A stretch of 32,728 bases of DNA from a virus. The translations under genes and the position numbers were made by a program. This document shows, one piece after another, positions 4,052 to 32,728 of the stretch. The notes under the pieces are model-generated. The model was not told where the DNA came from. It ran no database searches and worked only from the letters and a program-made list of their open reading frames with translations. The stretch is taken from the UHGV virus genome UHGV-2172388. One strand, given 5' to 3'. The stretch's first letter is position 1, and each line of letters starts with the position of its first letter.

Positions 4052-4079
4052 CCGCTTGTAACCCGGATGATTACAAGCG
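4052..4079. promoter_or_regulatory. Late-promoter activator (Ogr-type) dyad CCGCTTGTA-N11-TACAAGCG upstream of O (possibly shared with divergent P-Q operon)
   Basis: Perfect dyad; centre 84 nt upstream of the O ATG; same motif recurs before X, V and FI. Confidence 0.6.
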
Positions 4080-7603: not shown

Positions 7604-7981
7604 TCAGGAAGCATTTACATCACTAAGGGTATAGAAAATATCGGCTAAATCATCCAGATTCAGCGTTCCCTCAGCCACATCCACCATAATATCTTCCAGC
7701 TTTTGTGTTCGCTTGAGGTTCACACCCTGCATATCAAGGTATGTCAACGCCGTCACCAGTGCCGTTCGCTTGTTGGCATCAGCAAAAACGTGCCCTCTGG
7801 CGATGGCAACCGCATAAGATGCGGCGATCTGGAAAATATCATTCATCTGCTCATACAGAATACGGTTATCCACCCGCGCCAGTGTTGCCTCGACCCGGCC
7901 AGCATCCTGATAACCAACCAATCCCGGCTCATGAGCAAGAATAAAATCGTGAATTCCAATCACCAAATGTGCATCAATCAT
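7604..7981 (-). CDS. doc: Doc-family toxin (Fic-fold kinase, death-on-curing)
   Basis: 125 aa; motif GHVFADANKRTAL matches the Doc/Fic signature HxFx(D/N)(A/G)NKR; overall layout resembles P1 Doc as recalled. Confidence 0.85.
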   Translation of the reverse strand: MIDAHLVIGIHDFILAHEPGLVGYQDAGRVEATLARVDNRILYEQMNDIFQIAASYAVAIARGHVFADANKRTALVTALTYLDMQGVNLKRTQKLEDIMVDVAEGTLNLDDLADIFYTLSDVNAS

Positions 7982-8166
7982 CGGTTAGCCAGCGCCTTAA
8001 TGACTTTGTTGTGTCTGGCATAAATACGTTCTGCCGACTTTTTAATCACACGCTCACCTTCCGGGCCGTCCAGTTTCATTTCGACGGGTACGAACTGCCC
8101 ACTCATACTGTCTCTTTTTACGACCTTGATACCGTATCGGCTGGCAGGACTGCTATTCTTCGCCAT
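7978..8166 (-). CDS. Putative Doc antitoxin, not Phd/YefM-like at the N-terminus (possibly AbrB/MazE-like), C-terminus ...NKVIKALANR
   Basis: 62-aa ORF, stop overlaps the doc start (ATGA); AGAGG RBS 10 nt upstream; C-terminal tail resembles the Doc-neutralising end of P1 Phd (...NKELVNR). Confidence 0.55.
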   Translation of the reverse strand: MAKNSSPASRYGIKVVKRDSMSGQFVPVEMKLDGPEGERVIKKSAERIYARHNKVIKALANR

Positions 8167-9058: not shown

Positions 9059-9087
9059 CCGCTTGTACTGCCCTCAGTTACAAGCGG
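9059..9087. promoter_or_regulatory. Late-promoter dyad CCGCTTGTA-N11-TACAAGCGG upstream of X and the lysis genes
   Basis: Perfect dyad; centre 84 nt upstream of the X ATG. Confidence 0.6.
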
Positions 9088-12563: not shown

Positions 12564-12591
12564 CCGCTTGTAAAAATCCACAATACAAGCG
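12564..12591. promoter_or_regulatory. Late-promoter dyad CCGCTTGTA-N11-TACAAGCG upstream of V
   Basis: Perfect dyad starting immediately after the moron stop codon. Confidence 0.6.
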
Positions 12592-14491: not shown

Positions 14492-15098
14492 CTCCCTGCT
14501 CCCCAACAATGCCAGCTCGCTGGAGCAGAATCTGGCGCAAACAGGTAGCCTGACTGAACGAGTGCCGGTTCCGCTGCGTAGCCTGTGGCAACCGGATAAC
14601 TGCCCCGCCGCGCTGTTGCCTTATCTGGCATGGGCGTTTTCCGTTGACCGCTGGGATGAAAACTGGCCAGCCGATACCAAGCGGCAGGTGATTGCCGCTT
14701 CTTTCTACATCCATCAACACAAAGGCACCATCGGCGCACTACAGCGTGCGGTGGAGCCGCTCGGTTTCCTTATCCGGGTAACCGAATGGTGGCAACTGCG
14801 CCCGGAAGGTATTCCCGGCACCTTCGCGCTGGAAGTCGGCGTGCGCGAACAGGGCATCACCGAGCAGATGTATGTAGAGCTGGAGCGCCTGATCGATGAT
14901 GCAAAACCCTGTTCACGCCACTTAATCGGACTGGCGATCAGCCTGCAGAGCAACGGATACGTCTGGTTCACCGCGACGAACTATACCGGCGATACGCTCA
15001 CCGTTTATCCCTTTATTCCTGAACATGTATACAGCGTGGGCCGTAACTACCGTGGGGCTGCGCTGCATCTGATTGATACGCTAAGGATCGCCCCATGA
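14484..15098 (+). CDS. I: Baseplate protein (P2 gpI-like)
   Basis: ATG 14484 ([15 protein letters not shown]...); [30 protein letters not shown] match recalled gpI. Confidence 0.85.
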
Positions 15099-16606
15099 GC
15101 GCTACCTATTTCACGCTATTAACCACTACCGGCGAATCCGCGCTGGCGACCGCCACCGCACAGGGTTCGCCTCTTCATCTGACGCAAATGGCCGTTGGTG
15201 ACGGAAATGGTAACCTGCCAACGCCGGATACCGGCCAAACCCGGTTAGTCAACGAACGCCGACGTGCGCCGCTGAATACGCTCAGTATTGACCCTAACAA
15301 CCCCAACCAGATTATTGCCGAACAGGTATTGCCGGAGGACGTAGGCGGATGGTGGATCAGGGAAATTGGCCTGTACGACGAGCACGACCGGCTGATTGCC
15401 GTCGGCAACTGCCCGCCAACCTACAAGCCGCAGTTAATCGAAGGTTCGGGCCGCACACAGATTATCCGCATGGTGCTGATTGTCTCCCATACGGAAAACG
15501 TGGAACTGAAAATCGACCCTGCCGTGGTGCTGGCAACAAGACAGTATGTGGATGAAGGCCTATCCCGCCACGCGCAGTCCCGTAACCATCCTGACGCCAC
15601 CTTAACCGCCAAAGGATTTGCCCAATTAAGCAGCGCGACCAACAGCATCAGCGAAACACTGGCCGCCACGCCCAAAGCGATGAAAGCAGCCTACGATCTG
15701 GCTAATGGAAAATATACCGAACAGGATGCCACCACAGCGCGCAAAGGGGTTGTCCAGCTTAGCAGCGAAACCAACAGCACCAGCGAAACGCTCGCCGCCA
15801 CGCCCAAAGCGGTGAAAGCGGCCTACGATCTGGCTAATGGAAAATATACCGAGCAGGATGCCACCACGACGCGCAAAGGGGTTGCCCAGCTTAGTAGCGC
15901 CATCGACAGCACCAGCGAAACGCTGGCCGCCACGCCTAAAGCGGTAAAAGCGGCAGTAGACAAAGCGCTGGCGGCGGAAACCTGTCCGGTCGGCGCGCCG
16001 ATACCGTGGTCATCCGATGCCATCCCCAGCGGCTACGCCCTGATGGTCGGTCAGTCCTTCAATAAAACCTCCTACCCTAAGCTGGCAATCGCTTACCCCT
16101 CCGGTGTAATCCCGGATATGCGCGGCTGGACAATCAAGGGGAAACCCGCCAGCGGACGCACGATACTGTCTCAGGAGCAGGATGGCATTAAATCGCATGG
16201 TCACACCGCCAGCGCCACTAACACGGATTTAGGTACTAAAACCGCCAGTTCCACCGATTTGGGTACCAAAAATACCAGCGCGTTTGACTACGGGACAAAA
16301 TCGACCAATACCACCGGCGCGCACAACCACCAAATTCCGACTGACGGCATAAAAACAGGGAAGAATATGGCGTCAGTGGTGGGTTCTGATAATAGCGATG
16401 AAGATTTCAGGGACGTGACAAGTACCAATGGCAACCACGCCCACACCGTTGCTATCGGCGCACATACCCATTCGCTGGCTATCGGCGCACATAACCACAC
16501 CGTCGTCTTAGGTTCCCACAGCCACACTATTACGGTGAATGCCGCCGGGAACGCCGAAAACACCGTTAAAAATATCGCTTTCAACTATATCGTGAGGCTG
16601 GCATGA
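15095..16606 (+). CDS. H: Tail fiber protein (P2 gpH-like) with internal tandem repeats and His-rich C-terminal domain
   Basis: 503 aa; conserved N-terminus; three ~44-aa repeats; C-terminal HxH-rich tract ([29 protein letters not shown]). Confidence 0.9.
15611..15955 (+). repeat. Coding tandem repeat, 132-nt unit, 2.6 copies, inside tail fiber gene H
   Basis: Units start at 15611, 15743, 15875; protein repeat ...KG(V/F)[37 protein letters not shown]. Confidence 0.85.
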
Positions 16607-17310
16607 GCACATTCGCATTTTCCGACGAACCGCAAACCCTGCGCATCTTTAACTACGCGGCAGACACTCAGGAATTTATCGGCGTCAGCGACGCCTATAT
16701 CGCCCCCAACACCGGCTTACCGGAATGCTGTACCACTATCGAGCCTCCCGAATGCCAGAGCGGCTTTGCCCTGACATTCAACGGAGAAACATGGCTTGCG
16801 GTAGAAGATCATCGCGGTAAAACCGCGTTTGATACCGATGCGGGCAGTGAGGTACAGCTTCATCATCTGGGGCCATTGCCGGATAACGTCACTCTGCTGA
16901 AGCCCGATAACGCCTTTGTCCGTTGGGACGGCAAACGCTGGCGGCCCGATATCGAAAAAGCCCGACAGGCAAAGGTGGCAGAAATAAAGCAGTATCGAGA
17001 TCGAATCACCGCCGACTACATCATCATCGATAATCACCATTTCCACAGCGACGCTAACAGCCGCATCCAGCAGCTCTCGCTCACCAAAATGGGCGTGGCT
17101 AAACAAATACCGGCAGGCTTAATGTGGCAGACCAAAAATCACAACCTGATTGAACTGACCAACGAAATCGCCGCCCGGTTTGAAACCGAAACAATGGCGC
17201 ACGATATGCGCCTGTTCGCCGCTGCCCAGCAGCATATTGCCGCCATTGAAGCATTGACGGAGGTGCAGGCGGTTATGGGTTACGACTACTCGTCAGGATG
17301 GCAACCATGA
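16603..17310 (+). CDS. G: Tail fiber assembly chaperone (P2 gpG-like)
   Basis: 235 aa directly after H with ATGA overlap; synteny. Confidence 0.8.
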
Positions 17311-17765
17311 GTCAGGTTTACGCGGCGTTCTACCGTGGCCGGGCTGAACGCTTTTTCAGCCTTGCCCGGCTCTCCGACTGGCTGACTCGACAGGTCACGC
17401 GCGGCCCTTACTCTCACTGCGAACTGGTCGAACGCCAGCCGGATGGCCTGTTTATCTGTTACTCATCATCGGTACGGGATAAAGGCGTGCGCAGCAAACG
17501 AATGCCGCTGCCGATTGAGAAATGGGATTTACTCCCGATCAACGCCGATCCGCTGGCACTGGAAACCTTTTTTCGTCAGCATGACGATAAAGGTTACGAC
17601 TGGCTGGGCGCCATGGGTTTTGTGTTACTCAGTCAGGGCAAACAGGAACGCCTGTTTTGCAGCGAGTTCTGCGCCGAATTTCTGCACCTGCGCGATAGCT
17701 GGCGCTGGTCGCCTAATCTGCTGTATGCGTTGGTCAGCAGTCGGTCTGGAAAATTGACAATATGA
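17307..17765 (+). CDS. Hypothetical protein (about 152 aa) at the G/FI accessory locus, translationally coupled to the downstream methyltransferase
   Basis: ATG 17307 overlaps the G stop; its stop overlaps the dam start; no family recognised. Confidence 0.45.
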   Translation: MSQVYAAFYRGRAERFFSLARLSDWLTRQVTRGPYSHCELVERQPDGLFICYSSSVRDKGVRSKRMPLPIEKWDLLPINADPLALETFFRQHDDKGYDWLGAMGFVLLSQGKQERLFCSEFCAEFLHLRDSWRWSPNLLYALVSSRSGKLTI

Positions 17766-18520
17766 ATACGTTACCCGTTATTCCGTGGATCGGCGGCAAA
17801 CGCCGACTGGCGAAACACATCCTGCCGCTGTTTCCTGAACACCGCTGTTACGTCGAGCCATTTTGCGGAGCGGCGGCGCTGTTCTTTATGAAACGCCCCG
17901 CTCAGGCCGAGGTGCTGAATGATATCAACGGTGACGTTACCAACCTCTACCGGGTACTCCAGCACCATTTAGAAGAGTTTGTCCGCCAGTTTAAATGGTC
18001 GCTGGTCAGCCGCGAAATGTACCGCTGGCTCCAGATCACCCCGGAAGAAACGCTGACCGACATCCAGCGCGCGGCGCGCTTCTACTATCTGCAAAAGCTG
18101 GCGTTCGGCGGCAAGGTGGAAAGCCGCACGTTCGGTACCGCCACCACCTCACCGCCACGCCTGAACCTGCTGCGTATGGAGGAAGATTTATCCGCCGCCC
18201 ATCTGCGGCTGGCGCGCGTCTGTATTGAAAATCTGGACTGGGCCGACTGTATTCGCCGCTATGACCGCCCGCATACCCTGTTCTACTGCGACCCGCCATA
18301 CTGGAAAACCGAAGGCTACGGCGTACCGTTTGGCCTTGAGCAGTACCAGCGTATGGCAGAGCTGGCGCGCACCATGCAGGGCCGGATGATTATCTCGGTT
18401 AACGACATCCCGGAAATGCGCGATATCTTCCACGGCCTGACATTCTCAACGGTAGGGATTCGCTATACCGTAGGCGGAAAGCCAGCCAGCGCTACATCAG
18501 AACTGATTATCCTGAATTAA
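17762..18520 (+). CDS. dam: DNA N6-adenine methyltransferase (Dam-like, D12 class), orphan
   Basis: 252 aa; N-terminal WIGGKRRL and SAM-binding EPFCGAAAL; catalytic FYCDPPY (DPPY) motif. Confidence 0.85.
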   Translation: MNTLPVIPWIGGKRRLAKHILPLFPEHRCYVEPFCGAAALFFMKRPAQAEVLNDINGDVTNLYRVLQHHLEEFVRQFKWSLVSREMYRWLQITPEETLTDIQRAARFYYLQKLAFGGKVESRTFGTATTSPPRLNLLRMEEDLSAAHLRLARVCIENLDWADCIRRYDRPHTLFYCDPPYWKTEGYGVPFGLEQYQRMAELARTMQGRMIISVNDIPEMRDIFHGLTFSTVGIRYTVGGKPASATSELIILN

Positions 18521-18523
18521 AAA

Positions 18524-18562
18524 CCGCTTCTGCTTGTAGTGCCTGTGGTTACAAGTGGAAGC
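18524..18562. promoter_or_regulatory. Late-promoter dyad, degenerate copy (CTTGTA-N11-TACAAG core) upstream of FI
   Basis: Core TGT-N13-ACA spacing identical to the other three sites; centre 83 nt upstream of the FI ATG. Confidence 0.5.
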
Positions 18563-18626: not shown

Positions 18627-19805
18627 ATGGCAACCGACTACCACCACGGCGCGCGCGTTATTGAAATCAATGAAGGCGTGCGCCCAATCCGTACCCTCTC
18701 CACCGCCGTGATCGGCATCGTCTGCACCGGATCAGACGCCGATGAAAAAACCTTTCCCCTTGATACCCCGGTACTGTTAACCGACGTGCGATCTGCGCTG
18801 GGTAAAGCCGGTGATAGCGGTACGCTGGCGCACTCTCTGGATGCCATCGCCGACCAGACGCAGCCGGTGGTAGTCGCCGTGCGCGTAGCCGAAGGCGACT
18901 CCGCCGCCGAAACCACCGCCAATATCATCGGCGGCAGCACGCCAGCCGGGAAATACACCGGCATGAAGGCGCTGCTGGACTCGCAAACCAAACTGAAAAT
19001 AAAACCGCGCATTCTGGCGGTACCGGGGCTGGATTCTCTGCCTGTCGTCACCGAACTGGTCAGCATTTCACAGCAGCTTCGCGCCTTCAGCTATCTGTCG
19101 GCGTTCGGCGCGCAGACCAAAGAAGAGGTGGTGCTGTATCGCGATCAGCTCGGCGCACGGGAGGCGATGATTATCTGGCCGGATTTTGTCGGCTTTGATA
19201 CGCAGGCTGCTGCCGAACGCACGCTGTACGCCACCGCCCATGCCGTGGGCCTGCGTGCAAAAATTGATGAAGAAATCGGCTGGCATAAAACGCTGTCCAA
19301 CGTTGACGTCAACGGCGTGACTGGCATTTCCCGCAGCGTATTCTGGGATCTGCAGTCCACCGCCACCGATTCGGATTACCTCAACAGCCACGACGTCACC
19401 ACGCTGATTTGCAACGGCGGCTATCGCTTCTGGGGATCGCGCACCTGCAGCACCGATCCGCTGTTTGCCTTTGAGAACTACACCCGCACCGCGCAGGTGC
19501 TGGCGGATACCATCGCCGACGCCCACTTCTGGGCGGTAGATAAACCGCAACACGCTTCTCTGTTCCGCGACATTATCGAAGGCGTGAACGCCAAATTCCG
19601 CGAACTGAAAGGCAACGGCTACATCGTCGATGGTTCCGCATGGTTCGATCCCGCCGCCAACACGCCGGACATCCTGAAAGCGGGTAAAGCGTATATCGAC
19701 TACGACTACACCCCGGTGCCGCCGCTGGAAAACCTGATGTTCCGCCAGCGCATCACTGACCGCTATCTGGTCAATCTGGCTGAATCCATCGCCACCACCG
19801 TGTAA
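18627..19805 (+). CDS. FI: Tail sheath protein (P2 gpFI-like)
   Basis: ATG 18627 with GGAGG RBS; MATDYHHGARVIEINEGVRPI... matches recalled FI N-terminus. Confidence 0.9.
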   Translation: MATDYHHGARVIEINEGVRPIRTLSTAVIGIVCTGSDADEKTFPLDTPVLLTDVRSALGKAGDSGTLAHSLDAIADQTQPVVVAVRVAEGDSAAETTANIIGGSTPAGKYTGMKALLDSQTKLKIKPRILAVPGLDSLPVVTELVSISQQLRAFSYLSAFGAQTKEEVVLYRDQLGAREAMIIWPDFVGFDTQAAAERTLYATAHAVGLRAKIDEEIGWHKTLSNVDVNGVTGISRSVFWDLQSTATDSDYLNSHDVTTLICNGGYRFWGSRTCSTDPLFAFENYTRTAQVLADTIADAHFWAVDKPQHASLFRDIIEGVNAKFRELKGNGYIVDGSAWFDPAANTPDILKAGKAYIDYDYTPVPPLENLMFRQRITDRYLVNLAESIATTV

Positions 19806-24051: not shown

Positions 24052-25154
24052 CGATGTTAAACGCACTCTTAAACGCCCAGCCGCAGCCGGAGTACAGCGT
24101 GGTGCTGAACGGTAAGGACATTACGCGGAATCTGGACAACCGCTTAATCAGCCTGCGTATCACCGACAACCGGGGCTTTGAGGCCGACGAACTGCAGCTC
24201 GAACTGGACGACAGCGACGGCCTGCTGGCGTTTCCGGCAAAGGGCGAAAAAATAACGGTTTCTCTGGGCTGGAAGGGTGACGGCGTGATGCACCAGAATG
24301 TCTTCACCGTGGACGAACTGGAGCACAGCGGCGCACCGGACGTACTCAGTCTCCGCGCCCGCAGCGCCGATTTCCGCGATTCGCTGAACGTTAAACGGGA
24401 ACAGAGCTACCATGATGTGACGCTGGGCGCGATTGTGCAAACCGTGGCGGCACGTCATAAGCTGGAATCAACCGTCAGCGGCGAGCTGGCTGGGATCGCC
24501 ATTGAGCACGTTGACCAGACTAACGAGTCTGATGCGTCCTTCCTAACCCGGCTGGCGCAAATGCACGGCGCTATCGCCTGCGTGAAAAATGATGCTCTGC
24601 TGCTGATGCCGACAGGTTCCGGTAAAAGCGCCAGCGGCAAGCCGCTGCCGGTCGCAACCATTAACCGCGAGGACGGCGACAGCCACCGGTTCAGCATCGC
24701 GGACAGGGAAGCCTATACCGGCGTAACGGCCTACTGGCTGGATACGCGGCAGGCTAAAAAGCAGTCAACTGACGTGAAGCGCAAGACACGGAAAAATCTT
24801 CCGCAAACGCAACCAACAGAATCGCCGACGTCAGACACCTCATTCAACGCCGATAACGTGATGGTCGGCGAAGAGGGAAATATCAAGGTGCTGCGCCACA
24901 CCTATGCCAACAAAAATAACGCCTACAGAGCGGCAAAAAGCGCGTGGGAGCTATTACAGCGAGGCGCGGCAACGTTCAGCCTGAATCTTGCGCGCGGACG
25001 GCCCGATTTGTTCCCGGAACTGTCGGTGCAGGTGAAGGGGTTTAAGGCGGAGATTGACGGCACCGCGTGGGTGATTACGCGGTGCGTGCATACGTTGGAT
25101 AACAGCAGTGGGTATGGGACGGCGGTGGAGTGTGAGTTGGGGCTGGAAGATTAA
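24048..25154 (+). CDS. D: Tail protein / late control protein D (P2 gpD-like)
   Basis: 368 aa; ATGA overlap with U; synteny. Confidence 0.85.
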   Translation: MTMLNALLNAQPQPEYSVVLNGKDITRNLDNRLISLRITDNRGFEADELQLELDDSDGLLAFPAKGEKITVSLGWKGDGVMHQNVFTVDELEHSGAPDVLSLRARSADFRDSLNVKREQSYHDVTLGAIVQTVAARHKLESTVSGELAGIAIEHVDQTNESDASFLTRLAQMHGAIACVKNDALLLMPTGSGKSASGKPLPVATINREDGDSHRFSIADREAYTGVTAYWLDTRQAKKQSTDVKRKTRKNLPQTQPTESPTSDTSFNADNVMVGEEGNIKVLRHTYANKNNAYRAAKSAWELLQRGAATFSLNLARGRPDLFPELSVQVKGFKAEIDGTAWVITRCVHTLDNSSGYGTAVECELGLED

Positions 25155-26152
25155 TATCCAATACCGCTACTTACACCAACATCACTTAAAATCATTCTCA
25201 ATTCGTTCAAATATCCAGGTAACGGCCATTCTTGCTGTAATTTATTACTGTCTTCATTTATTGCCAGCCAGTAAGTAAAAATGACCACTGGCTGCGCAAA
25301 AAAAAGATTGGCAGTAGCCCTTTGTTGGATTTTATATGATATATATTTTTTCTTATCAAGAAGGTCGATTAGATTAGTCAAAAGATCTTCTTGTATAAAC
25401 GACCTATACTCATCTAAAAAACAATAATTTATTTTATCTTCCTGATTTAAATACTGTCTCCCAATTTTATTTATATAAAAATCTTTTAACTCCTTTAAAA
25501 AATCATTTCTTGGTTTATTAGTATCACATAAAAGCCGCATTGTATTACAAAATAATTCATCTGTTGTTTCCATCAAAGCCATACTACGCGCAATTTGGCG
25601 CTCCGCTTTTTTCGGTACTGGGCCAACAGGTTTATAAACGCTATCATGAACTAATTCTGCATACGCATGCTGCAATAATGTTCTAATTTGTACTTCACAG
25701 CACATATCAGTTGTAATATTAACTCCCGATATAACGCTATTTATCTTTGGCCTTATTTCAAAATGCTTTGATTGATAATCAAATAGTTTAGGGTTTACCT
25801 CTATTTCATCCTGATAATCTTTAGAAACAACAGCTATCCATTGTTCATTATTCTGAATGATTTTACAGATTGTCTCAATATCTTCAGAAAGTAAAACGAC
25901 AAAACGAACGCCAACGAGATCCGTCATCTGCTGAACAGGGTTGTTATAACCTTTACGACCAACCTTCCCTAATGCGGACTCGATACCTTTAACTCTCGGA
26001 GTGGGTGGTACCTTGATGAAGAGCTGGGCGGCCCCTTCACCAAGTTGTTCAATCAAAGCCGCATTGATTTCAGACGCAATATGTTTACCCCATGCTTCAT
26101 AAGCAGCATGGTTTTCAACCAGATAACGTCTAAAATCCTCTATACTCATCAT
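25151..26152 (-). CDS. RelA/SpoT-family nucleotidyltransferase (small alarmone synthetase / toxSAS-like) with about 140-aa C-terminal extension of unknown fold
   Basis: 333 aa in AT-rich DNA; synthetase-domain motifs RVKGIESALGKVGRKG, DLVGVRFVV, CEVQIRTLLQHAYAELVHDSVYK; ATGA overlap with the upstream gene. Confidence 0.7.
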   Translation of the reverse strand: MMSIEDFRRYLVENHAAYEAWGKHIASEINAALIEQLGEGAAQLFIKVPPTPRVKGIESALGKVGRKGYNNPVQQMTDLVGVRFVVLLSEDIETICKIIQNNEQWIAVVSKDYQDEIEVNPKLFDYQSKHFEIRPKINSVISGVNITTDMCCEVQIRTLLQHAYAELVHDSVYKPVGPVPKKAERQIARSMALMETTDELFCNTMRLLCDTNKPRNDFLKELKDFYINKIGRQYLNQEDKINYCFLDEYRSFIQEDLLTNLIDLLDKKKYISYKIQQRATANLFFAQPVVIFTYWLAINEDSNKLQQEWPLPGYLNELRMILSDVGVSSGIGY

Positions 26153-27237
26153 TCTTGACTTTTCAACCGCCCTTTGACTTTAAGTGTAGTTGACTCATCA
26201 TCATCTGTTTGTTCAATCTGTACCAGTTCTTTTACTTGATCTGGTGGTATGGATATCCATACATCGCTTGTAAACACTAATTTACTTCTACGACGAAGCT
26301 TTTTCTTAATATAATCAGTATCTTTAGACACTGCATTCTGCGGAAAACCTTTTTGAGCCATAAATGACTGATAGCTCGTCTGTAATTCTTGAGGAAGATG
26401 TTCCGTAGCAAACGAAGCGGTACTCAAAGTTGCTTTCTGACTTCTCAGTTCAGAACGTAATGACTCGTGTAAATCAAACTTAGTTTCTTCATCAACTGGA
26501 GCCTGATTAATGAAATTTCGAGTATGTTCAAAAAAATCCTGCGTCAATTTCTTGGAGGATTTTTCGATCCCCATTCCAAGAAAAACACTGTAAAAATACC
26601 CCGCAGCATTTTTAGTTTCCGTCGATGTCATCAAGTGATCAAATAAAAATGAACGATAATATTGCGTATCACAACGACCATCAATCAATTCATGGCCTGA
26701 CTCACACTCAATCAACACTCCTATTTTATAAAGCCGCTGAGTTGGTGTAAGTAATAAGTCAGCAATATACTCCATCGCTATTTTCTCTGGGGTATCATTG
26801 GTCCGAAATCCGTTTTGCATTTCAGCACGCAGTACAGCAAAGAATGGGCAGGCTTGTTCACCAATTTTTCCCGTAATGATTACTAACACACCACCGGAAA
26901 CCTTCCCCGCACTATATTGAGCTTCTGTTAACTTATGCGCCAATCGCTTAGATACGTTAATAAATGATTCGCCTTCAACATGTAGTACAGACGTTGTCAG
27001 TGCAAAAAAACTATCATCACCGGTATCAGTGATAGACATTTCAATGCCATGAGATTTATTACCTAAGGCTTCTGTTATACGAACCTGTAGTGCATCCAAA
27101 GCATCTTGTTCTAACGTTATTAACTGATTACTTAACTTAGGTGGAACCATTTGCTTATCGGGAGACCTTGGGAAGATTCGATGAGCAATAATTCTTTCAA
27201 TCATCACCCCCTCAAAAGAAAAGCCGACATTTGCCAT
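26149..27237 (-). CDS. NdpA/YejK-like (NA37 nucleoid-associated protein family) hypothetical protein
   Basis: 362 aa in AT-rich DNA; by-eye resemblance to E. coli YejK in several blocks (IERIIAHRI vs INQIALHQL; GG-hydrophobic block); assignment from memory. Confidence 0.45.
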   Translation of the reverse strand: MANVGFSFEGVMIERIIAHRIFPRSPDKQMVPPKLSNQLITLEQDALDALQVRITEALGNKSHGIEMSITDTGDDSFFALTTSVLHVEGESFINVSKRLAHKLTEAQYSAGKVSGGVLVIITGKIGEQACPFFAVLRAEMQNGFRTNDTPEKIAMEYIADLLLTPTQRLYKIGVLIECESGHELIDGRCDTQYYRSFLFDHLMTSTETKNAAGYFYSVFLGMGIEKSSKKLTQDFFEHTRNFINQAPVDEETKFDLHESLRSELRSQKATLSTASFATEHLPQELQTSYQSFMAQKGFPQNAVSKDTDYIKKKLRRRSKLVFTSDVWISIPPDQVKELVQIEQTDDDESTTLKVKGRLKSQE

Positions 27238-27268
27238 AATTACTCCCTAATAAGCTGAAATTAATAAA

Positions 27269-27604
27269 TCATTGTACTTTTCGACAATTCATCGGTTGCG
27301 CAAGCGCAGCGCTAACCGTGTCAAGGGTGGACTGGTGTTCTGGCGTAGCAGAACGATAGTTTTCCACCAACACACTCTCTTTATTGGACAACGTAACCAC
27401 AGGCGTGCGGTTGCCTGTTAGAACATACAGAACATCAACTCCCGCTGCCGCTATGCCAGCAAGATAGTCACTGTCCGGCTTGCGCAACCCATTCTCATAG
27501 TTGCTTTGTGCGTTTTTCTTCACGCCCCCAAGTTGTCCAAAGCCGTCTTGATCAAGTCCAAGTCGGATACGTTCTTCCTTCAAACGGATGCCAAATTCTT
27601 TCAT
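27269..27604 (-). CDS. XRE-family helix-turn-helix repressor (candidate prophage immunity repressor)
   Basis: 111 aa; HTH_3 pattern IRLKEERIRLGLDQ...YENGLRKP...LAGIAAAGVDVLYVLTG; leftward from the switch region; GC content like the phage backbone. Confidence 0.65.
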   Translation of the reverse strand: MKEFGIRLKEERIRLGLDQDGFGQLGGVKKNAQSNYENGLRKPDSDYLAGIAAAGVDVLYVLTGNRTPVVTLSNKESVLVENYRSATPEHQSTLDTVSAALAQPMNCRKVQ

Positions 27605-27732
27605 TTGGATATAATTACCATTGACAATTCACTCAATTGAGGGAATTATAGATTGTGTAATGTTAATAACCACAATATACCACCATGAAAACAAATGAGA
27701 ACGTCTTACGCTCAAGAGCGCCTCGCGGGGTG
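27605..27732. promoter_or_regulatory. Divergent switch/intergenic region: rightward TTGACA (27621-27626), leftward perfect TATAAT (complement of 27645-27650), 10-bp palindrome CTCAATTGAG (27632-27641)
   Basis: Direct reading of the sequence between the divergent repressor and RHH genes. Confidence 0.4.
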
Positions 27733-27891
27733 ATGTCGAACAAACCGGTGGCAATGCGCCTGCTCCCCGCTGAAATCGCGGAACTGGAAGCATTAGCGCT
27801 GGATCAGAACCGTTCGATGTCCAGCATGGCAAGAATCATTTTTTTGAACGGCATCACACTATTTCGTCAGTCCGTTAACGAAAAGCGTTAG
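27733..27891 (+). CDS. Small ribbon-helix-helix (CopG/Arc-type) DNA-binding protein, candidate Cro/Cox-like early regulator
   Basis: 52 aa from ATG 27733 (MSNKPVAMRLLPAEIAELEALALDQNRSMSSMARIIFLNGI...); divergent from the repressor. Confidence 0.4.
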   Translation: MSNKPVAMRLLPAEIAELEALALDQNRSMSSMARIIFLNGITLFRQSVNEKR

Positions 27892-27909
27892 TGTTTCAGT
27901 TAGTTAAAA

Positions 27910-28158
27910 GTGGTAAGGAGACAGGACATGATGAAATGCCCACACTGCGACGGTAAGGCGATAATTCGCAGCAGCGAATATATGTCACCGCTGGTACGTA
28001 AGCTCTATTACCAGTGCAAAAACGTTAACTGTTCGTTTTCATTTATCGCAATGGAAACCGTGATGGGAACGGTGGTACCGAGCGGTTGCCCGAATCCTAA
28101 GATACACATACCACTATCCACACGCGGGCAATTTCTGCAAAAACAGAAAATCGCGTAA
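27910..28158 (+). CDS. ogr: Ogr/Delta-family zinc-finger late transcription activator
   Basis: CPHCDGKA...YYQCKNVNCSFSF matches the Ogr Cys4 pattern (P2 Ogr CPLC...YHQCQNVNCSATF as recalled). Confidence 0.8.
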   Translation: MVRRQDMMKCPHCDGKAIIRSSEYMSPLVRKLYYQCKNVNCSFSFIAMETVMGTVVPSGCPNPKIHIPLSTRGQFLQKQKIA

Positions 28159-28246
28159 CGCTCAGTAAATAAAAGACTCACAACCACAACGCATAAACAA
28201 CGTGTCTATGCGACGGGTAAGTATTACCTGAATAAAGGTACTGGCA

Positions 28247-30901
28247 ATGCAACCACAACTTCATCAGGAAATTACGCGGCGACTACTGGCCGACTTTTCC
28301 TTTAAAGAACAGGGCGACTGGCTGCGGCAGGGCATCTGCCCGGACTGCCAGAAAAAAGAGCTGTACACCAATGCCATCAGCCCGTGGGTATTGCGCTGCG
28401 GTCGCCTGAATAAATGCAATGCCGAAATCCACATCAAAGATATGTACCCGGATCTGTTTGAAAGCTGGTCAGACAGATATCCCCCAACCCCGGAAAACCC
28501 ACAGGCCGCCGCCGATGCCTACCTGCGCGAGATGCGCGGCTTTGACCTTTCGCTGATCCGTGACTGTTACACTCAAGAGAACTACTACGACCCACGGCGT
28601 GATATCGGTTCAGCGACGGTACGTTTCCCGCTGGCTGACGGCGTGTGGTGGGAGCGGATCGTTGACCGCCCACAGCGTTTCGGCGATCGCAAAGCCAACT
28701 TTCACGGCGCTTACAGCGGGCTATGGTGGCTATTGCCAACGCTGAAGCTGGAAGAACAGCAGGAGATCTGGCTGGTTGAGGGCATTTTTGACGCTATCGC
28801 CCTGCACCACCACGGCATTGCCGCCGTTTCCCTGATGACCTGTAACAACTATCCGGCGCAGGCGTTAAGCCAACTGGCCGCGCTGTTCGTGGATAAAAAG
28901 CGCCCTTTACTGGTCTGGGCGCTGGATAACGACAAGGCGGGCATGAGCTATACCCGGCGATGGGTAAAGCGCAGCCGGGACGAAGGCTGGAGCGCAGCCG
29001 CCGCACAGACGCCGCATTCCCGCAGCAAGCTGGACTGGAACGATTTGCACCAACGCGACCGGCTTAACCCAGAGCTAGTGAAGAAATACCGCTACTACGG
29101 CTCTCTGCTGATCGCCACCTCTCCCGCCGCCAAAGCCCTGCTGATGCACGAACAGACAGAGCGTAAAGAGTTCCACTTCGAGTTTGACAGCCGCCTGTTC
29201 TGGTTCAAGCTGGATATTGACCGCTATATGCGGGTGCATGAAAGTATCTCATTCTCCAATGACGACCTGAGCGAAGAAGAGCTGAAACAGAAGGCGCTGA
29301 AAGAGTCGTCCGCCGTGGTGGAGATCGCCAACTGCTACCCGACCGCCCTCTACTATCAGGCCAACACCATCACCGACGAAAGCTGGTATTACTTTCGCAT
29401 TAACTTCCCGGACGACACGCCGCCGATAAAAAACACCTTCACCGGCTCCCAACTTTCCAGCGGCTCAGAATTCAAAAAGCGCCTGCTGCATATCGCGCAG
29501 GGCGGCATCTTCACCGGCACCAGTCAGCAGTTAGATAAGTTGCTGCTCAAGCAGCTTCCCAAAATCAAAACTGTCCAGACCACTGATTTTATCGGCTACA
29601 GCAAAGAATACCGCGCTTACGTGTTCAACGATCTGGCCGTTCGCGATGGTCGGCTGTACACACTCAACGAAGAAGACTTCTTCGACATGGGCAAACTCAG
29701 CCTTAAAAGCCTGAACCAGTCGGTCAGCCTGACGCTGAACGACAATTTAAAACAGATGGACAGCCAGTGGCCCCAGCTACTCTGGCAGGCGTTTGGCGCA
29801 AAGGGCTTTGTGGCGCTGGCGTTCTGGCTTGGGACGATGTTTGCCGAACAGATCCGCGACAAGCACAAGAGCTTTCCGTTTCTGGAAATCGTTGGCGAAC
29901 CCGGCAGCGGCAAAACCACGCTGATAGAGTTTCTCTGGAAGCTGTTAGGCCGACGCGACTATGAAGGTTTCGATCCGTCTAAATCAACGCTGGCCGCCCG
30001 CGCGCGCAACTTTGCGCAGGTGGCGAACATGCCGGTGGTGCTGATCGAGGGTGACCGTAATCAGGAGGGTGCAAAGCAACGCGGCTTTGATTGGGAAGAG
30101 CTAAAAACCGCCTATAACGGGCGGTCAGTGCGGTCTCGCGGTCTGCGTAACAGCGGTAACGAGACCTATGAACCTCCGTTCCGGGGCTCGATTGTGATTG
30201 CGCAAAACGCCGACGTTAGCGCCTCTAACCCGGTGCTGGAACGTATTATTCACCTGTACACCGACCGCAGCGGCCAGAATACTCAGACCAAGGTCGCTGC
30301 CGAGCAGCTCGAACGCCTGCCGGTGGAACAGCTTTCCGGCTTTATGCTGAAAGCAGCGCTGGCGGAACAGGCCGTGCTGGAGTGCGTCAACCGGCAGATC
30401 CCGCTATACGAGCAGCAGCTTCACGCCCACCCCGATATTCGCCATATCCGCATCATTAAAAACCACGCCCAGCTTATGGCGCTGCTCGACGCGCTGGCGC
30501 TGGTTATTCCGGTCACGAAGGAGCAGCTACAGGCAACCAGAGAAATGTTTATCCGCCTCAGTCTGGAGCGCCAGCAGGCCATCAGCGCCGACCACCCTCT
30601 GGTGCAGGAGTTCTGGGATATTTTCGACTTCCTCGATGGCGACGACGAACCACAGCTCAACCACTCGCGCGATGAACAGCTTATCGCCGTCAACCTTAAC
30701 CACTTTATTCAACTGGCCACCGAACGTCGCCAGCAGATCCCACCAGTCAGCGATTTAAAGCGGGTACTGAAAACCAGCCGTACCCACAAGTTTATTGAAG
30801 TCAGAACGGTTAACAGCGGCATCAACGCTGAATTTAACCGCCGTTACCCAGCCGCATCGCGCCACCCGGCGACGGTGAAGTGTTGGGTTTTTCAACGATA
30901 A
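28247..30901 (+). CDS. Replication primase-helicase (N-terminal zinc ribbon, TOPRIM domain, C-terminal P-loop NTPase), P4 alpha-like
   Basis: 884 aa; CPDCQ...C..LNKC zinc ribbon; TOPRIM-like LVEGIFDAIALHHHG; Walker A GEPGSGKTT. Confidence 0.75.
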   Translation: MQPQLHQEITRRLLADFSFKEQGDWLRQGICPDCQKKELYTNAISPWVLRCGRLNKCNAEIHIKDMYPDLFESWSDRYPPTPENPQAAADAYLREMRGFDLSLIRDCYTQENYYDPRRDIGSATVRFPLADGVWWERIVDRPQRFGDRKANFHGAYSGLWWLLPTLKLEEQQEIWLVEGIFDAIALHHHGIAAVSLMTCNNYPAQALSQLAALFVDKKRPLLVWALDNDKAGMSYTRRWVKRSRDEGWSAAAAQTPHSRSKLDWNDLHQRDRLNPELVKKYRYYGSLLIATSPAAKALLMHEQTERKEFHFEFDSRLFWFKLDIDRYMRVHESISFSNDDLSEEELKQKALKESSAVVEIANCYPTALYYQANTITDESWYYFRINFPDDTPPIKNTFTGSQLSSGSEFKKRLLHIAQGGIFTGTSQQLDKLLLKQLPKIKTVQTTDFIGYSKEYRAYVFNDLAVRDGRLYTLNEEDFFDMGKLSLKSLNQSVSLTLNDNLKQMDSQWPQLLWQAFGAKGFVALAFWLGTMFAEQIRDKHKSFPFLEIVGEPGSGKTTLIEFLWKLLGRRDYEGFDPSKSTLAARARNFAQVANMPVVLIEGDRNQEGAKQRGFDWEELKTAYNGRSVRSRGLRNSGNETYEPPFRGSIVIAQNADVSASNPVLERIIHLYTDRSGQNTQTKVAAEQLERLPVEQLSGFMLKAALAEQAVLECVNRQIPLYEQQLHAHPDIRHIRIIKNHAQLMALLDALALVIPVTKEQLQATREMFIRLSLERQQAISADHPLVQEFWDIFDFLDGDDEPQLNHSRDEQLIAVNLNHFIQLATERRQQIPPVSDLKRVLKTSRTHKFIEVRTVNSGINAEFNRRYPAASRHPATVKCWVFQR

Positions 30902-30910
30902 GGAAATGTT

Positions 30911-31288
30911 ATGAACGAAATATTTAAGGCTCTGGCAACGCAAGAAACCCAACGACAAAGACTTTGCGTAACGCCAGAGGAATACCGCCTTGCTGTCAAT
31001 ACCCTTGTCGACGTTGCTCTCACAGAAACCACCGGCGGACGCGCGGCTGCGCAGGTACTGCTTTCTGCATGGAATGGCTACGTGTGGCAACTGGATATTC
31101 CCGACCTCTGTTATCTGGACTATGACCTGCTGGAACAGGCGCTGATCGTTATCCGGGGGCGGATAATGTTGATGAAAGAGCCGCAGGAGGTGATCCCGGA
31201 GGGGAATGCGGTGATGAAGCGGATTGCAGCGCAGTGGCAACACCTGAACGCCGAACGGCATGGGGAAAACAATGAAAATTGCCATTAG
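30911..31288 (+). CDS. Hypothetical protein (125 aa) downstream of the primase
   Basis: ORF with GGA RBS context, co-oriented with the primase; no family recognised. Confidence 0.4.
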   Translation: MNEIFKALATQETQRQRLCVTPEEYRLAVNTLVDVALTETTGGRAAAQVLLSAWNGYVWQLDIPDLCYLDYDLLEQALIVIRGRIMLMKEPQEVIPEGNAVMKRIAAQWQHLNAERHGENNENCH

Positions 31289-31528
31289 AAAAAACGTGCT
31301 TTTACAGATGGTGCCACTCTCTGAAAGTACGATTTATGCGTTGGAGCAAAAAGGCCTGTTTCCCAACGTTTTGCGCTAACGAAGCGCGCCGTCGCGTGGG
31401 ACAAAGAGGAAGTGGAACGCTGGCTCAAGACTCGGCAGGAAAATAACCATCACCATATTGACAGTGCGGTACAGAAGAATCTGGCCAAAGCACCAAAGCG
31501 CTCTGGTACCAAGATCCCCGCATAGTAC
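31272..31528 (+). pseudogene. alpA: AlpA-like (MerR-type excisionase/regulator) gene apparently disrupted by a frameshift
   Basis: Frame 1 gives MKIAIRKNVLLQMVPLSESTIYALEQKGLFPNVLR then stop; frame 2 continues ...LTKRAVAWDKEEVERWLKTRQENNHHH...; halves match the AlpA pattern (..STIYrl...G.FP....lg.RaVaW...ev..Wl). Confidence 0.35.
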
Positions 31529-32728
31529 TTACGGGCGGTATTGCTTGATCCACCCATCAACCATATCCGCCCACTGCTGCAACATATCACGGCGCTGCTC
31601 TGCGTATTCCGCTTTGTTATAAACGGCTCTGACGCTTCTTTCCTCGTGCGCGAGGCATTTTTCTATCCAGTCGGAATTAAACCCCGCCTCATGCAATAAC
31701 GTCGAGGCCGTTCGGCGCATATCGTGAACGGAAAACGACGCCAGCCTGATCCCCCGTTCCTGCGCCTGCTTAACCGTAAGATTAATGACCCGGTTTAAGG
31801 TCGCCGCCGACATGGTCTTATGCGACGACTGATTGCATGAAGGCAAAACCCAATCACTGCTTCCTGCGCACATTTTCAGGGCAATCAGAATGTCCTGTGC
31901 CTGCCGGGACAGATAAACATTATGATCCCGTGATCCCTTCATCCGGCTGGCGTCAATCGTCCAAAGGCAGGCATTAAAATTAACCTCACCCCACGGCGCG
32001 TTCAGCAGTTCACTTTTACGCACCATCGTTAATAAAACCAATTTAATGGCCAGCTTGATGGTGGGTAATGTACCCGTTTGTTCAAGCTGATTGAAAAACC
32101 AGCCTATCTCCTCTGGCTTGAGCGCCCTGTCGCGCGCTTCGAATGTCGCAATTGAAGCCGGTAAAACCTCTTCGGCAGGATTGGGGTAATAGTCGCCGTG
32201 AAGCGCGGCGAACTTAAATACCGCACTAACGATATTGCGAACCTGAATCGCCGTCGCTGGCGCACCACGCGCTTTTATCTTGTCGCAATACTCACGTAGG
32301 AGAGAGGGGGTTATCTCTGACAGCAGCTTGCGCCCCCATACTGGGGTGATGTCTCTGTCGATAATGCTTTGCTTCATCGCCCTTGTGCTGTCCGCCAGCC
32401 GGGTGTGTTTCATGTAGCTGACGGTAAAATCGTGGAGTGTCTTTTCTTCTTTTCGCTTTGTTTTACCGTCACGCTTCTCTCCAGCGGGCGATATTCCTGC
32501 ATTTACGCGTTTTTTAGCTTCCACTAATTTTTCGCGCGCCTGCGCCAGAGAAATACCGTCACCATAGCGACCAATCGTTAACGTTTCACGACGACCATTG
32601 ATTCGATAGTCATAGCGAAACGTCACCAATCCATTGGGAGATACGGTTACATACAGCCCATCACGGTCTGCAACTTTATAAAGTTTTTCCCGCGCTTTGA
32701 GGTTTTTCAGCTTGGTATCGGTCAGCAT
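31529..32728 (-). CDS. int: Tyrosine integrase, P4/CP4-57 type (N-terminal arm-binding domain)
   Basis: 399 aa; N-terminus MLTDTKLKNLKAREKLYKVADRDGLYVTVSPNGLVTFRYDYR typical of P4-family integrases; C-terminal catalytic region with conserved R...H..R...Y context; start codon at the window edge. Confidence 0.9.
   Translation of the reverse strand: MLTDTKLKNLKAREKLYKVADRDGLYVTVSPNGLVTFRYDYRINGRRETLTIGRYGDGISLAQAREKLVEAKKRVNAGISPAGEKRDGKTKRKEEKTLHDFTVSYMKHTRLADSTRAMKQSIIDRDITPVWGRKLLSEITPSLLREYCDKIKARGAPATAIQVRNIVSAVFKFAALHGDYYPNPAEEVLPASIATFEARDRALKPEEIGWFFNQLEQTGTLPTIKLAIKLVLLTMVRKSELLNAPWGEVNFNACLWTIDASRMKGSRDHNVYLSRQAQDILIALKMCAGSSDWVLPSCNQSSHKTMSAATLNRVINLTVKQAQERGIRLASFSVHDMRRTASTLLHEAGFNSDWIEKCLAHEERSVRAVYNKAEYAEQRRDMLQQWADMVDGWIKQYRP

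Follow-up and report, generated by a model that had tools for sequence, protein, structure and literature searches.

The window considered here is the whole 32,728-nucleotide stretch of the virus genome UHGV-2172388, a P2-like prophage that is 100% identical to one integrated beside guaA in Escherichia coli GMF054. Between its tail-fibre gene H and its tail sheath gene FI lie a G-like tail-fibre assembly (chaperone) gene, a small gene named here orfA, and dam, which encodes an orphan DNA methyltransferase, and it is with the nature and relationship of the latter two that this work deals (Table 1). The same three genes are annotated by RefSeq in E. coli GMF054, where orfA appears as a "hypothetical protein", and megablast of the region against the phage collection returned no match. 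A preliminary description of this DNA had placed the methylase at the accessory locus that P2-like phages have between G and FI, preceded by an open reading frame (ORF) of ~152 amino acids (aa) that overlaps both the G stop and the dam start; both statements hold, the two junctions being ATGA overlaps, with the TGA stop codon of G at 17308-17310. An AGGA Shine-Dalgarno motif is found 7 nucleotides (nt) upstream of the orfA start. That of dam (tGGAAAa) is weak, and translational coupling of dam to orfA is therefore plausible. The G-like protein, for its part, matches PF14301 (E 4.7e-13) and PF02413 (E 1.5e-4) in Pfam, as well as phrog_1807, phrog_105 and phrog_2837 among the PHROG families.

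Table 1. Features of the G/FI interval and candidate late promoter operators, in window coordinates.
Feature	Position	Strand	Description
G-like tail-fibre assembly/chaperone gene, 235 aa	16603..17310	+	N-terminal part Caudo_TAP-like, C-terminal domain DUF4376
G/orfA ATGA overlap	17307..17310	+	orfA start codon shares bases with G stop
orfA, 152 aa	17307..17765	+	ATG at 17307, TGA at 17763-17765; predicted circularly permuted NlpC/P60 (YaeF/YiiX-like) Cys-His enzyme
orfA/dam ATGA overlap	17762..17765	+	dam start codon shares bases with orfA stop
dam, 252 aa, orphan D12-class N6-adenine DNA methyltransferase	17762..18520	+	ATG at 17762; PF02086 match
FI tail sheath gene	18627..19805	+	Right-hand border of accessory interval; Phage_sheath_1 and Phage_sheath_1C matches
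TTGTA-N11-TACAA dyad	4056..4076		Upstream of O; candidate Ogr/Delta site
TTGTA-N11-TACAA dyad	9063..9083		Upstream of X; candidate Ogr/Delta site
TTGTA-N11-TACAA dyad	12568..12588		Upstream of V; candidate Ogr/Delta-type late promoter operator for V-W-J-I-H-G-orfA-dam
TTGTA-N11-TACAA dyad	18534..18554		dam-FI spacer; candidate late promoter operator for FI operon, marks V operon end

The neighbourhood of orfA was explored in two sets of loci, counts resting on the best 80 loci per scan: a genome set, to which each species of the GTDB genomes contributes one locus and the phage collection four more, and a viral set of IMG/VR contigs retrieved through orfA. In the genome set, 77 of 83 loci have on the same strand an ORF of ~200-260 aa whose end falls close to the start of orfA; the two overlap by 1-19 nt in 59 of the 77 (-4 in 25, -8 in 18 and -11 in 9), and in another 10 they are no more than 14 nt apart, giving a gap between -19 and +14 nt in 69 of 77 overall. 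The viral set displays the same arrangement, with such an upstream ORF in 78 of 79 loci, overlapping the orfA start in 60 (46 of them in the exact 4-nt form), exactly abutting it in 12, and with a gap from -19 to +14 nt in 76 of the 78. These upstream ORFs match a family-specific profile of DUF4376 tail-fibre assembly proteins in 68 of 76 cases, Pfam DUF4376 in 40 and Caudo_TAP in 14, and on the PHROG side phrog_2837 (55 of 76) together with other tail-fibre-assembly families. For the reverse test an alignment-based search was used, since the G protein as sole query recovered only the same phage; among IMG/VR loci retrieved via the chaperone and having at least 500 nt downstream, orfA is found immediately 3' in 60 of 68. 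Thus, orfA is reciprocally linked to the DUF4376 chaperone, in a fixed position, as part of a tail-fibre cassette.

The chaperone-orfA order is seen in P2-like, Mu-like and siphovirus-like genomes, and the link spans phages of Enterobacterales, Pasteurellales, Neisseriales and Moraxellaceae. Homologues directly following a tail-fibre assembly gene, with no adjoining methylase, are found in the Mu-like Haemophilus phage SuMu (gp50-gp51), in Pasteurella Pm86 (ORF69-ORF70), in Moraxella Mcat2, in Salmonella (STM4199-STM4198) and in E. coli remnant prophages beside yjbD/rluF. Papers that mention STM4198 appear to be surveys of gene content only. The paper on SuMu virion proteomics does not mention gp51, which speaks neither for nor against its association with the virion. 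Two of the E. coli remnants that carry orfA only (L334 and L335, from strains EC-10 and GF130) show opposite-strand genes for a nucleotidyltransferase-domain and a slipin-family protein after orfA, and like-sized opposite-strand ORFs are similarly placed after orfA in L008-L010.

DUF4376 is a domain of tail-fibre chaperones that have been experimentally studied in Alteromonas phages (PMC10579305). The G-like gene shares with two of them, V22 gp27 and A5 gp9, both this domain and the position after the fibre gene; on the contrary, the V22 and A5 studies report only fibre and chaperone, with no orfA-like third gene such as the one that follows here in most chaperone-anchored loci. In alignment A5 and in the G-like gene, the C-terminal DUF4376 half of the chaperones, which is the half that adjoins orfA, is far more conserved than the N-terminal one. 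Classical Tfa proteins have the reverse pattern, their N-terminal half being the conserved one. DUF4376 and orfA domains were seen in a single 340-aa ORF in one case only, in an uncultured Kingella metagenome-assembled genome (L036, 4512-5534), which is either a natural fusion or a frameshift error. Longer proteins with an orfA domain (P0225, P0252 and others) were also considered as Rosetta-stone fusions and discarded, their orfA domain being fused to pieces of Mu transposase or tail sheath, so that they are probably chimeric calls.

Regarding the orfA product itself, the preliminary description had found the ORF to be of no recognisable family. Nonetheless, it matches phrog_1128 upon PHROG profile search (E 4.5e-52); 194 homologues were retrieved in the initial search, and exhaustive profile search (E<=1e-3) extended the family to 3033 clusters at 50% identity. 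The ORF is thus a genuine and conserved gene, as seen both from this family size and from a ratio of nonsynonymous to synonymous divergence (dN/dS) of 0.16 relative to the copy of Salmonella houtenae. No match to a Pfam family at E<=1, to NCBIfam or to PADLOC was found, a single-sequence PDB search gave nothing, and fold matches in BFVD were to uncharacterised phage proteins only. The AlphaFold2 model (pLDDT 85.9) displays a papain-like alpha+beta core similar to those of solved permuted NlpC/P60 (YaeF/YiiX-like) members, with His37, in strand 35-43, preceding Cys118, at the start of helix 118-125, as in the permuted order. In agreement with the model, the orfA family profile reaches 3KW0 by sequence, with a borderline E of 0.001, and its SH and CSEF motifs fall, in that order, on those that hold the His and the Cys of 3KW0. 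Residues H37, E39, C51, S53, S55, R57, D58 and C118-S119-E120 are invariant in 50 orfA sequences of down to 40% identity. As modelled, orfA is thus a member of the permuted NlpC/P60 superfamily, within its YaeF/YiiX-like branch, and it constitutes a distinct family without a curated model, since neither Pfam nor NCBIfam matches it and only the borderline profile match connects it with 3KW0. His37 and Cys118, the latter within the CSEF motif, are its putative catalytic residues, and they would make of it an acyl-hydrolase or acyltransferase. Neither the sequence nor the model gives evidence of a signal peptide or a membrane segment.

The permuted NlpC/P60 branch includes lipid-active acyltransferases and phospholipases that operate through a Cys-His acyl-enzyme (PMC7387801, PMC12994826). 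With YiiX (PDB 2IF6) and the Bacillus cereus BCE_A0238 'cysteine peptidase' (3KW0), orfA shares the permuted His-before-Cys order and the small single-domain build, but only 15-16% identity; it is ~30-60 residues shorter and matches neither Peptidase_C92 nor other Pfam models. It also differs from YiiX-like proteins in being phage-encoded and joined to a tail-fibre chaperone gene, a context undescribed for them. The structural match to LRAT/PLAAT acyltransferase-phospholipases, to Staphylococcus aureus LnsA and to the type VI secretion system effectors TseH and Tox-Act1 is weaker than that to YiiX, and orfA, whose activity is a prediction, differs from these proteins in lacking a membrane anchor, an association with a secretion system and an immunity gene. 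The label "enoyl-CoA hydratase/carnithine racemase-like", under which PHROG 1128 and the GenBank records of SuMu gp51, Pm86 ORF70 and RP12 ORF176 are listed, was considered and rejected, as no Pfam match (ECH) is found and the predicted fold is that of NlpC/P60 and not that of crotonases; it appears to be a propagated misannotation.

In a S. houtenae relative (L332) the G-orfA-dam trio is intact and both ATGA overlaps are kept, and the genes of the interval could be compared one by one with those of the window. Amino acid identity is 85% for G (synonymous divergence, dS, 0.72; dN/dS 0.12), 70% for orfA (dS 1.48; dN/dS 0.16), 97% for Dam (dS 0.41; dN/dS 0.04) and 97% for FI (dS 0.34; dN/dS 0.05), the last ~35 residues of orfA being near-identical. 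This low dN/dS and the near-identical C-terminus therefore situate orfA under purifying selection, with a recombination boundary inside its 3' end. From these sequence comparisons, the fibre cassette, including most of orfA, is exchanged, with dam staying with the FI-side backbone. Positive selection on orfA was considered as the cause of its high divergence from S. houtenae and discarded in favour of allele replacement by recombination, because dS is high too and dN/dS low.

The dam product is, as previously described, a 252-aa methyltransferase with a DPPY motif: it matches PF02086 (MethyltransfD12) with E 2e-28 over residues 9-225, its motif I (PFCGAA) is found at residue 34, and its motif IV (DPPY) occupies residues 177-180, nt 18290-18301. 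Equally sustained is the statement that no restriction enzyme adjoins it; it is flanked by orfA on one side and the tail sheath gene on the other, and PADLOC matches the methylase alone (MTase_II PDLC03253, E 3.7e-114), with no cognate endonuclease gene alongside that would point to type II restriction-modification. The protein does not behave as a GATC-specific Dam equivalog either, since it scores below the curated cutoffs (103.6 bits versus 114.85 for TIGR00571, and 61 versus 441 for PRK10904), matches E. coli Dam structures with E 1e-13 only, and differs from E. coli Dam in its DNA-reading hairpin region, the segment AFGGKVESRTFGTATTSPPR being unlike NGLCRYNLRGEFNVPFGR. Its full-length relatives, for which an overall range of 64-72% identity applies, are found in the BcepMu-like phages PhiKM and KP12 (72%), VP882 (gp37, 67%), Pseudomonas phage B3 (ORF48, 66%) and Burkholderia phage phiE125 (gp27, 65%), with no orfA near any of them. 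All of these are orphan enzymes of temperate phages situated at the ends of late gene blocks, B3 ORF48 forming part of a Com-Dam pair, and phiE125 gp27 is reportedly an active methylase. Thus, dam is an ordinary member of a widespread clade of phage orphan D12 methylases, although, unlike these relatives, it is situated with the tail-fibre cassette on one side and the sheath gene on the other, has no Com, and has its start overlapping the orfA stop. In some lysogens, namely a second genome of S. houtenae (L333, 4441-5197) and Kingella kingae (L042, 1611-2386), dam is frameshifted or split next to an intact orfA, as would fit with Dam being cargo that can be dispensed with.

In five of the loci with both orfA and Dam (L011, L021/L023, L130, L155 and L166), a zinc-finger ORF resembling Com (CxxC..KLLA..EIKCPRCK) is found ahead of Dam, and such ORFs overlap the Dam start in L021/L023 and in B3 (L089). 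Outside the enterobacterial lineage orfA and Dam lie 45-1200 nt apart, often with a com-like ORF in the gap. No Com-controlled cassette of the Mu com-mom type is present in the window, where there is no room for com because dam starts inside the orfA stop, and RNA folding at the dam start gave nothing above shuffled sequences (z -0.2), with no sign of a Mom-like occluding hairpin. Altogether, this indicates that a com-dam cassette exists in relatives and is missing from the window lineage. The site after the chaperone gene is used in a similar manner by other phages: the Burkholderia P2-like phage KS5 has the order tail-fibre assembly gene-com-methylase-FI, without orfA (PMC3091744). As in Mu com-mom, the DNA-modification gene directly follows the tail-fibre assembly gene and is expressed late, and in KS5 it does so at the exact G/FI position; on the contrary, the KS5 enzyme is an N6_N4 (PF01555) methylase and that of Mu is Mom, while the window has a D12 methylase without Com, even though the relatives of this Dam have one. 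The best explanation of why orfA and Dam are repeatedly found side by side is therefore that each of them favours the end of the tail-fibre operon.

Expression of the two genes would be late. Perfect TTGTA-N11-TACAA dyads occur four times in the window, versus 1.2 expected, all of them intergenic and upstream of late blocks only, and the prophage encodes an Ogr/Delta protein. P2 has four Ogr-dependent late promoters, which the four dyads mirror, and its Ogr consensus is TGT-N12-ACA, the spacing of the window dyad being one base longer. From their sequence and placement, the four dyads probably serve this phage as Ogr/Delta activator sites. From H to FI, scans of the + strand gave neither a further dyad nor a sigma-70-like promoter or an intrinsic terminator, and the GC content is uniform, all of which points to V-W-J-I-H-G-orfA-dam being a single late operon. 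Since both genes lie at the 3' end of this V operon, Dam probably methylates progeny DNA; anti-restriction is the classical role of phage orphan methylases. The preliminary description had proposed comparing the methylomes of lysogen and cured strain, with absence of a new methylated motif speaking against the enzyme, which would be misleading as a refutation test, because with dam apparently expressed only late the methylome of the lysogen could be blank even if the enzyme is active.

That description also suggested that the 152-aa protein might be a functional partner of the methylase. As a specificity, regulatory or stabilising subunit it would form with Dam a two-component modification system, to which the ATGA overlap between both genes in the window as well as in S. 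houtenae lends some appeal, as does the frequency of D12 methylases, from more than one lineage, behind orfA: they are the commonest first gene downstream of it in the genome set (11 of 75 loci, followed by the tail sheath with 7, the rest being diverse), and they follow orfA in 13 of 60 orfA-carrying chaperone-anchored loci. In the viral set a Dam-like gene is found in 10 of 79 loci, and in 8 of 48 among those with at least 1.2 kb downstream. Nonetheless, these figures amount to ~10-20% of orfA loci with a D12 methylase next, often with its own Com regulator, and leave 80-90% of orfA genes without an adjoining one. Seen from the methylase, orfA is upstream in 9 and missing in 71 of the 80 IMG/VR loci closest to the window Dam (64-99% identity), and among 5426 complete E. 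coli genomes, of which 734 have DNA resembling either gene, only 4 have both adjacent. Individual relatives tell the same: the P2-like contig L178 displays H, G (62% identical), Dam (78%) and FI with no orfA, while in L174 and L175 the genes J and I are followed by another H and by a short ORF of no relation, and then by Dam (96% identical) and FI. There, orfA has been recombined away except for its final 20 codons (80% identical), which abut dam, and nucleotide homology to the window begins at ~17709. The variable and often Com-containing spacing outside the lineage, the occurrence of methylases after a chaperone without orfA (KS5), whereby position explains adjacency, and the hydrolase/acyltransferase fold of orfA, with no target recognition domain or DNA-binding fold, also argue against a partnership. 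With the two genes mostly occurring apart and orfA having an enzyme fold, this claim does not stand, and we regard it as very improbable. By their distribution in sequenced genomes, orfA and dam are seemingly two separable accessory genes.

Two further explanations look at orfA on its own. It might be a moron comparable to Z/fun, serving lysogenic conversion or exclusion. It would then act on the host, for instance through changes to an envelope lipid or to the phage receptor that prevent superinfection, or against a host defence, and would ride with the fibre cassette only because its effect must match the receptor of the fibre. P2 Z/fun is a lysogenic exclusion gene, and it occupies the same G-FI chromosomal slot as orfA-dam, with no sequence relation found between them. 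Such a role would also fit with two variable loci of P2-like phages being known to hold anti-phage genes (PMC9122126) and with permuted NlpC/P60 enzymes being lipid-active (PMC7387801, PMC12994826), and an accessory, possibly host-directed role of orfA is kept as a live rival by L178, where orfA is dispensable for a related chaperone, and by the Ralstonia jumbo phage RP12, where the homologue stands alone. On the contrary, orfA lacks both a promoter and a terminator of its own, and its GC content does not stand out; compared with Z/fun, orfA-dam shows no independent promoter consensus and apparently sits within the late operon. Its start/stop overlap inside late structural operons of P2-like, Mu-like and siphovirus-like phages argues for late lytic over lysogenic expression, and neither a PADLOC match nor an evident signal peptide or membrane segment is found. 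The fallback of the preliminary description, an unrelated exclusion factor, may still hold in some form, but these data tie orfA to the tail-fibre chaperone rather than to a free-standing exclusion moron, and we hold the moron explanation to be improbable. Membership in the NlpC/P60 superfamily and the tail-gene neighbourhood could alternatively suggest a peptidoglycan hydrolase for entry or lysis, as are the NlpC/P60 or CHAP domains of phage tails and endolysins; this is most unlikely, considering that no export signal is present, that Pfam NLPC_P60, CHAP and Peptidase_C92 give no match even at E<=1, and that lysis is already provided for in the prophage by a complete cassette that includes an N-acetylmuramidase.

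We consider it likely, instead, that the interval holds two accessory genes, independent of each other, with which the late V-W-J-I-H-G operon of this P2-like prophage closes at its 3' end. Under this explanation orfA would be a small cytoplasmic or virion-associated enzyme, part of the exchangeable tail-fibre cassette and made in step with the DUF4376 chaperone by means of the start/stop overlap. Its Cys118, activated by His37, would form an acyl-thioester, and the acyl group, from a lipid or an amide, would then be hydrolysed or transferred, the substrate being most likely tied to the fibre-chaperone complex or to an envelope lipid or lipopolysaccharide (LPS) recognised by the fibre. The methylase, made late in lytic growth only, would methylate progeny genomes before packaging and so blunt restriction in the next host, and its ATGA coupling to orfA would be a lineage-specific arrangement taking the place of the Com activator of other phages, with no two-protein machine behind it. 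A more far-reaching proposal, which we advance only tentatively and consider rather unlikely as it stands, is that the tail-fibre modules of many phages of Gram-negative hosts have a third component, so far undescribed, in orfA, namely a lipid- or acyl-active Cys-His enzyme recruited by the conserved DUF4376 domain of the chaperone. It would either be carried at the tip of the fibre and act on LPS or outer-membrane lipid upon adsorption, or covalently process or acylate the fibre-chaperone complex in the course of assembly.

Several observations weigh against the explanation by two independent accessory genes. The chaperone patterns behind the 60 of 68 loci were derived from orfA-linked chaperones, which introduces an ascertainment bias, though the scan itself is blind to orfA. 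The P2-like relative L178 has its 62%-identical G without an adjoining orfA, and orfA is consequently not essential for the chaperone family, while the RP12 homologue is found alone among opposite-strand genes. A D12 methylase remains the single most frequent gene downstream of orfA, and since these methylases come from several lineages, orfA and methylases may have some loose affinity in function. The activity of orfA, its substrate, its association with the virion and its contact with the chaperone are proposals, and the assignment of the late promoters derives from a motif found here.

Elsewhere in the prophage, the tail-fibre gene H (15095-16606) contains internal tandem repeats of ~132 nt (15611-15954, 79-81% identical), which encode repeated protein units, and codes for a C-terminal run of HxH motifs. 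On the - strand, a gene for a death-on-curing (Doc) family toxin and a small upstream partner ORF lie at 7604-8166, between the head-completion gene and the X/lysis block, and four cargo genes lie between D and ogr at 25144-28526, encoding a 418-aa hypothetical protein, a 'nucleoid-associated protein', a DUF6037 protein and a helix-turn-helix (HTH) protein; the latter four may constitute an accessory or defence island. Just to the left of the window, beside the portal gene, locus L001 (1-2693) contains two adjacent DUF262-domain genes at the position of the P2 old/tin variable locus, a known hotspot of anti-phage systems (PMC9122126). The early region (29169-31823) encodes an 884-aa toprim-domain protein, a DUF7673 protein and an HTH protein, and not A, B and cox of the P2 type; therefore, the prophage pairs P2-like morphogenesis genes with a different replication module.

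Regarding the methylase, the finding is a routine one: a late orphan methylase at the end of a tail-fibre operon is a known habit of phages, the partner hypothesis can be dropped, and its methylation would be expected in virion DNA after induction rather than in the DNA of the lysogen. Regarding orfA, what emerges is a family of ~150-aa enzymes with thousands of members, for which Pfam has no model and phage databases give a wrong function. If the fibre or the receptor lipid is indeed what orfA acts on, the recognition of the host or the maturation of the fibre would gain an enzymatic step, and orfA would be relevant to engineered receptor-binding modules, as in retargeted phages and pyocins, where only the fibre and its chaperone are now transplanted.

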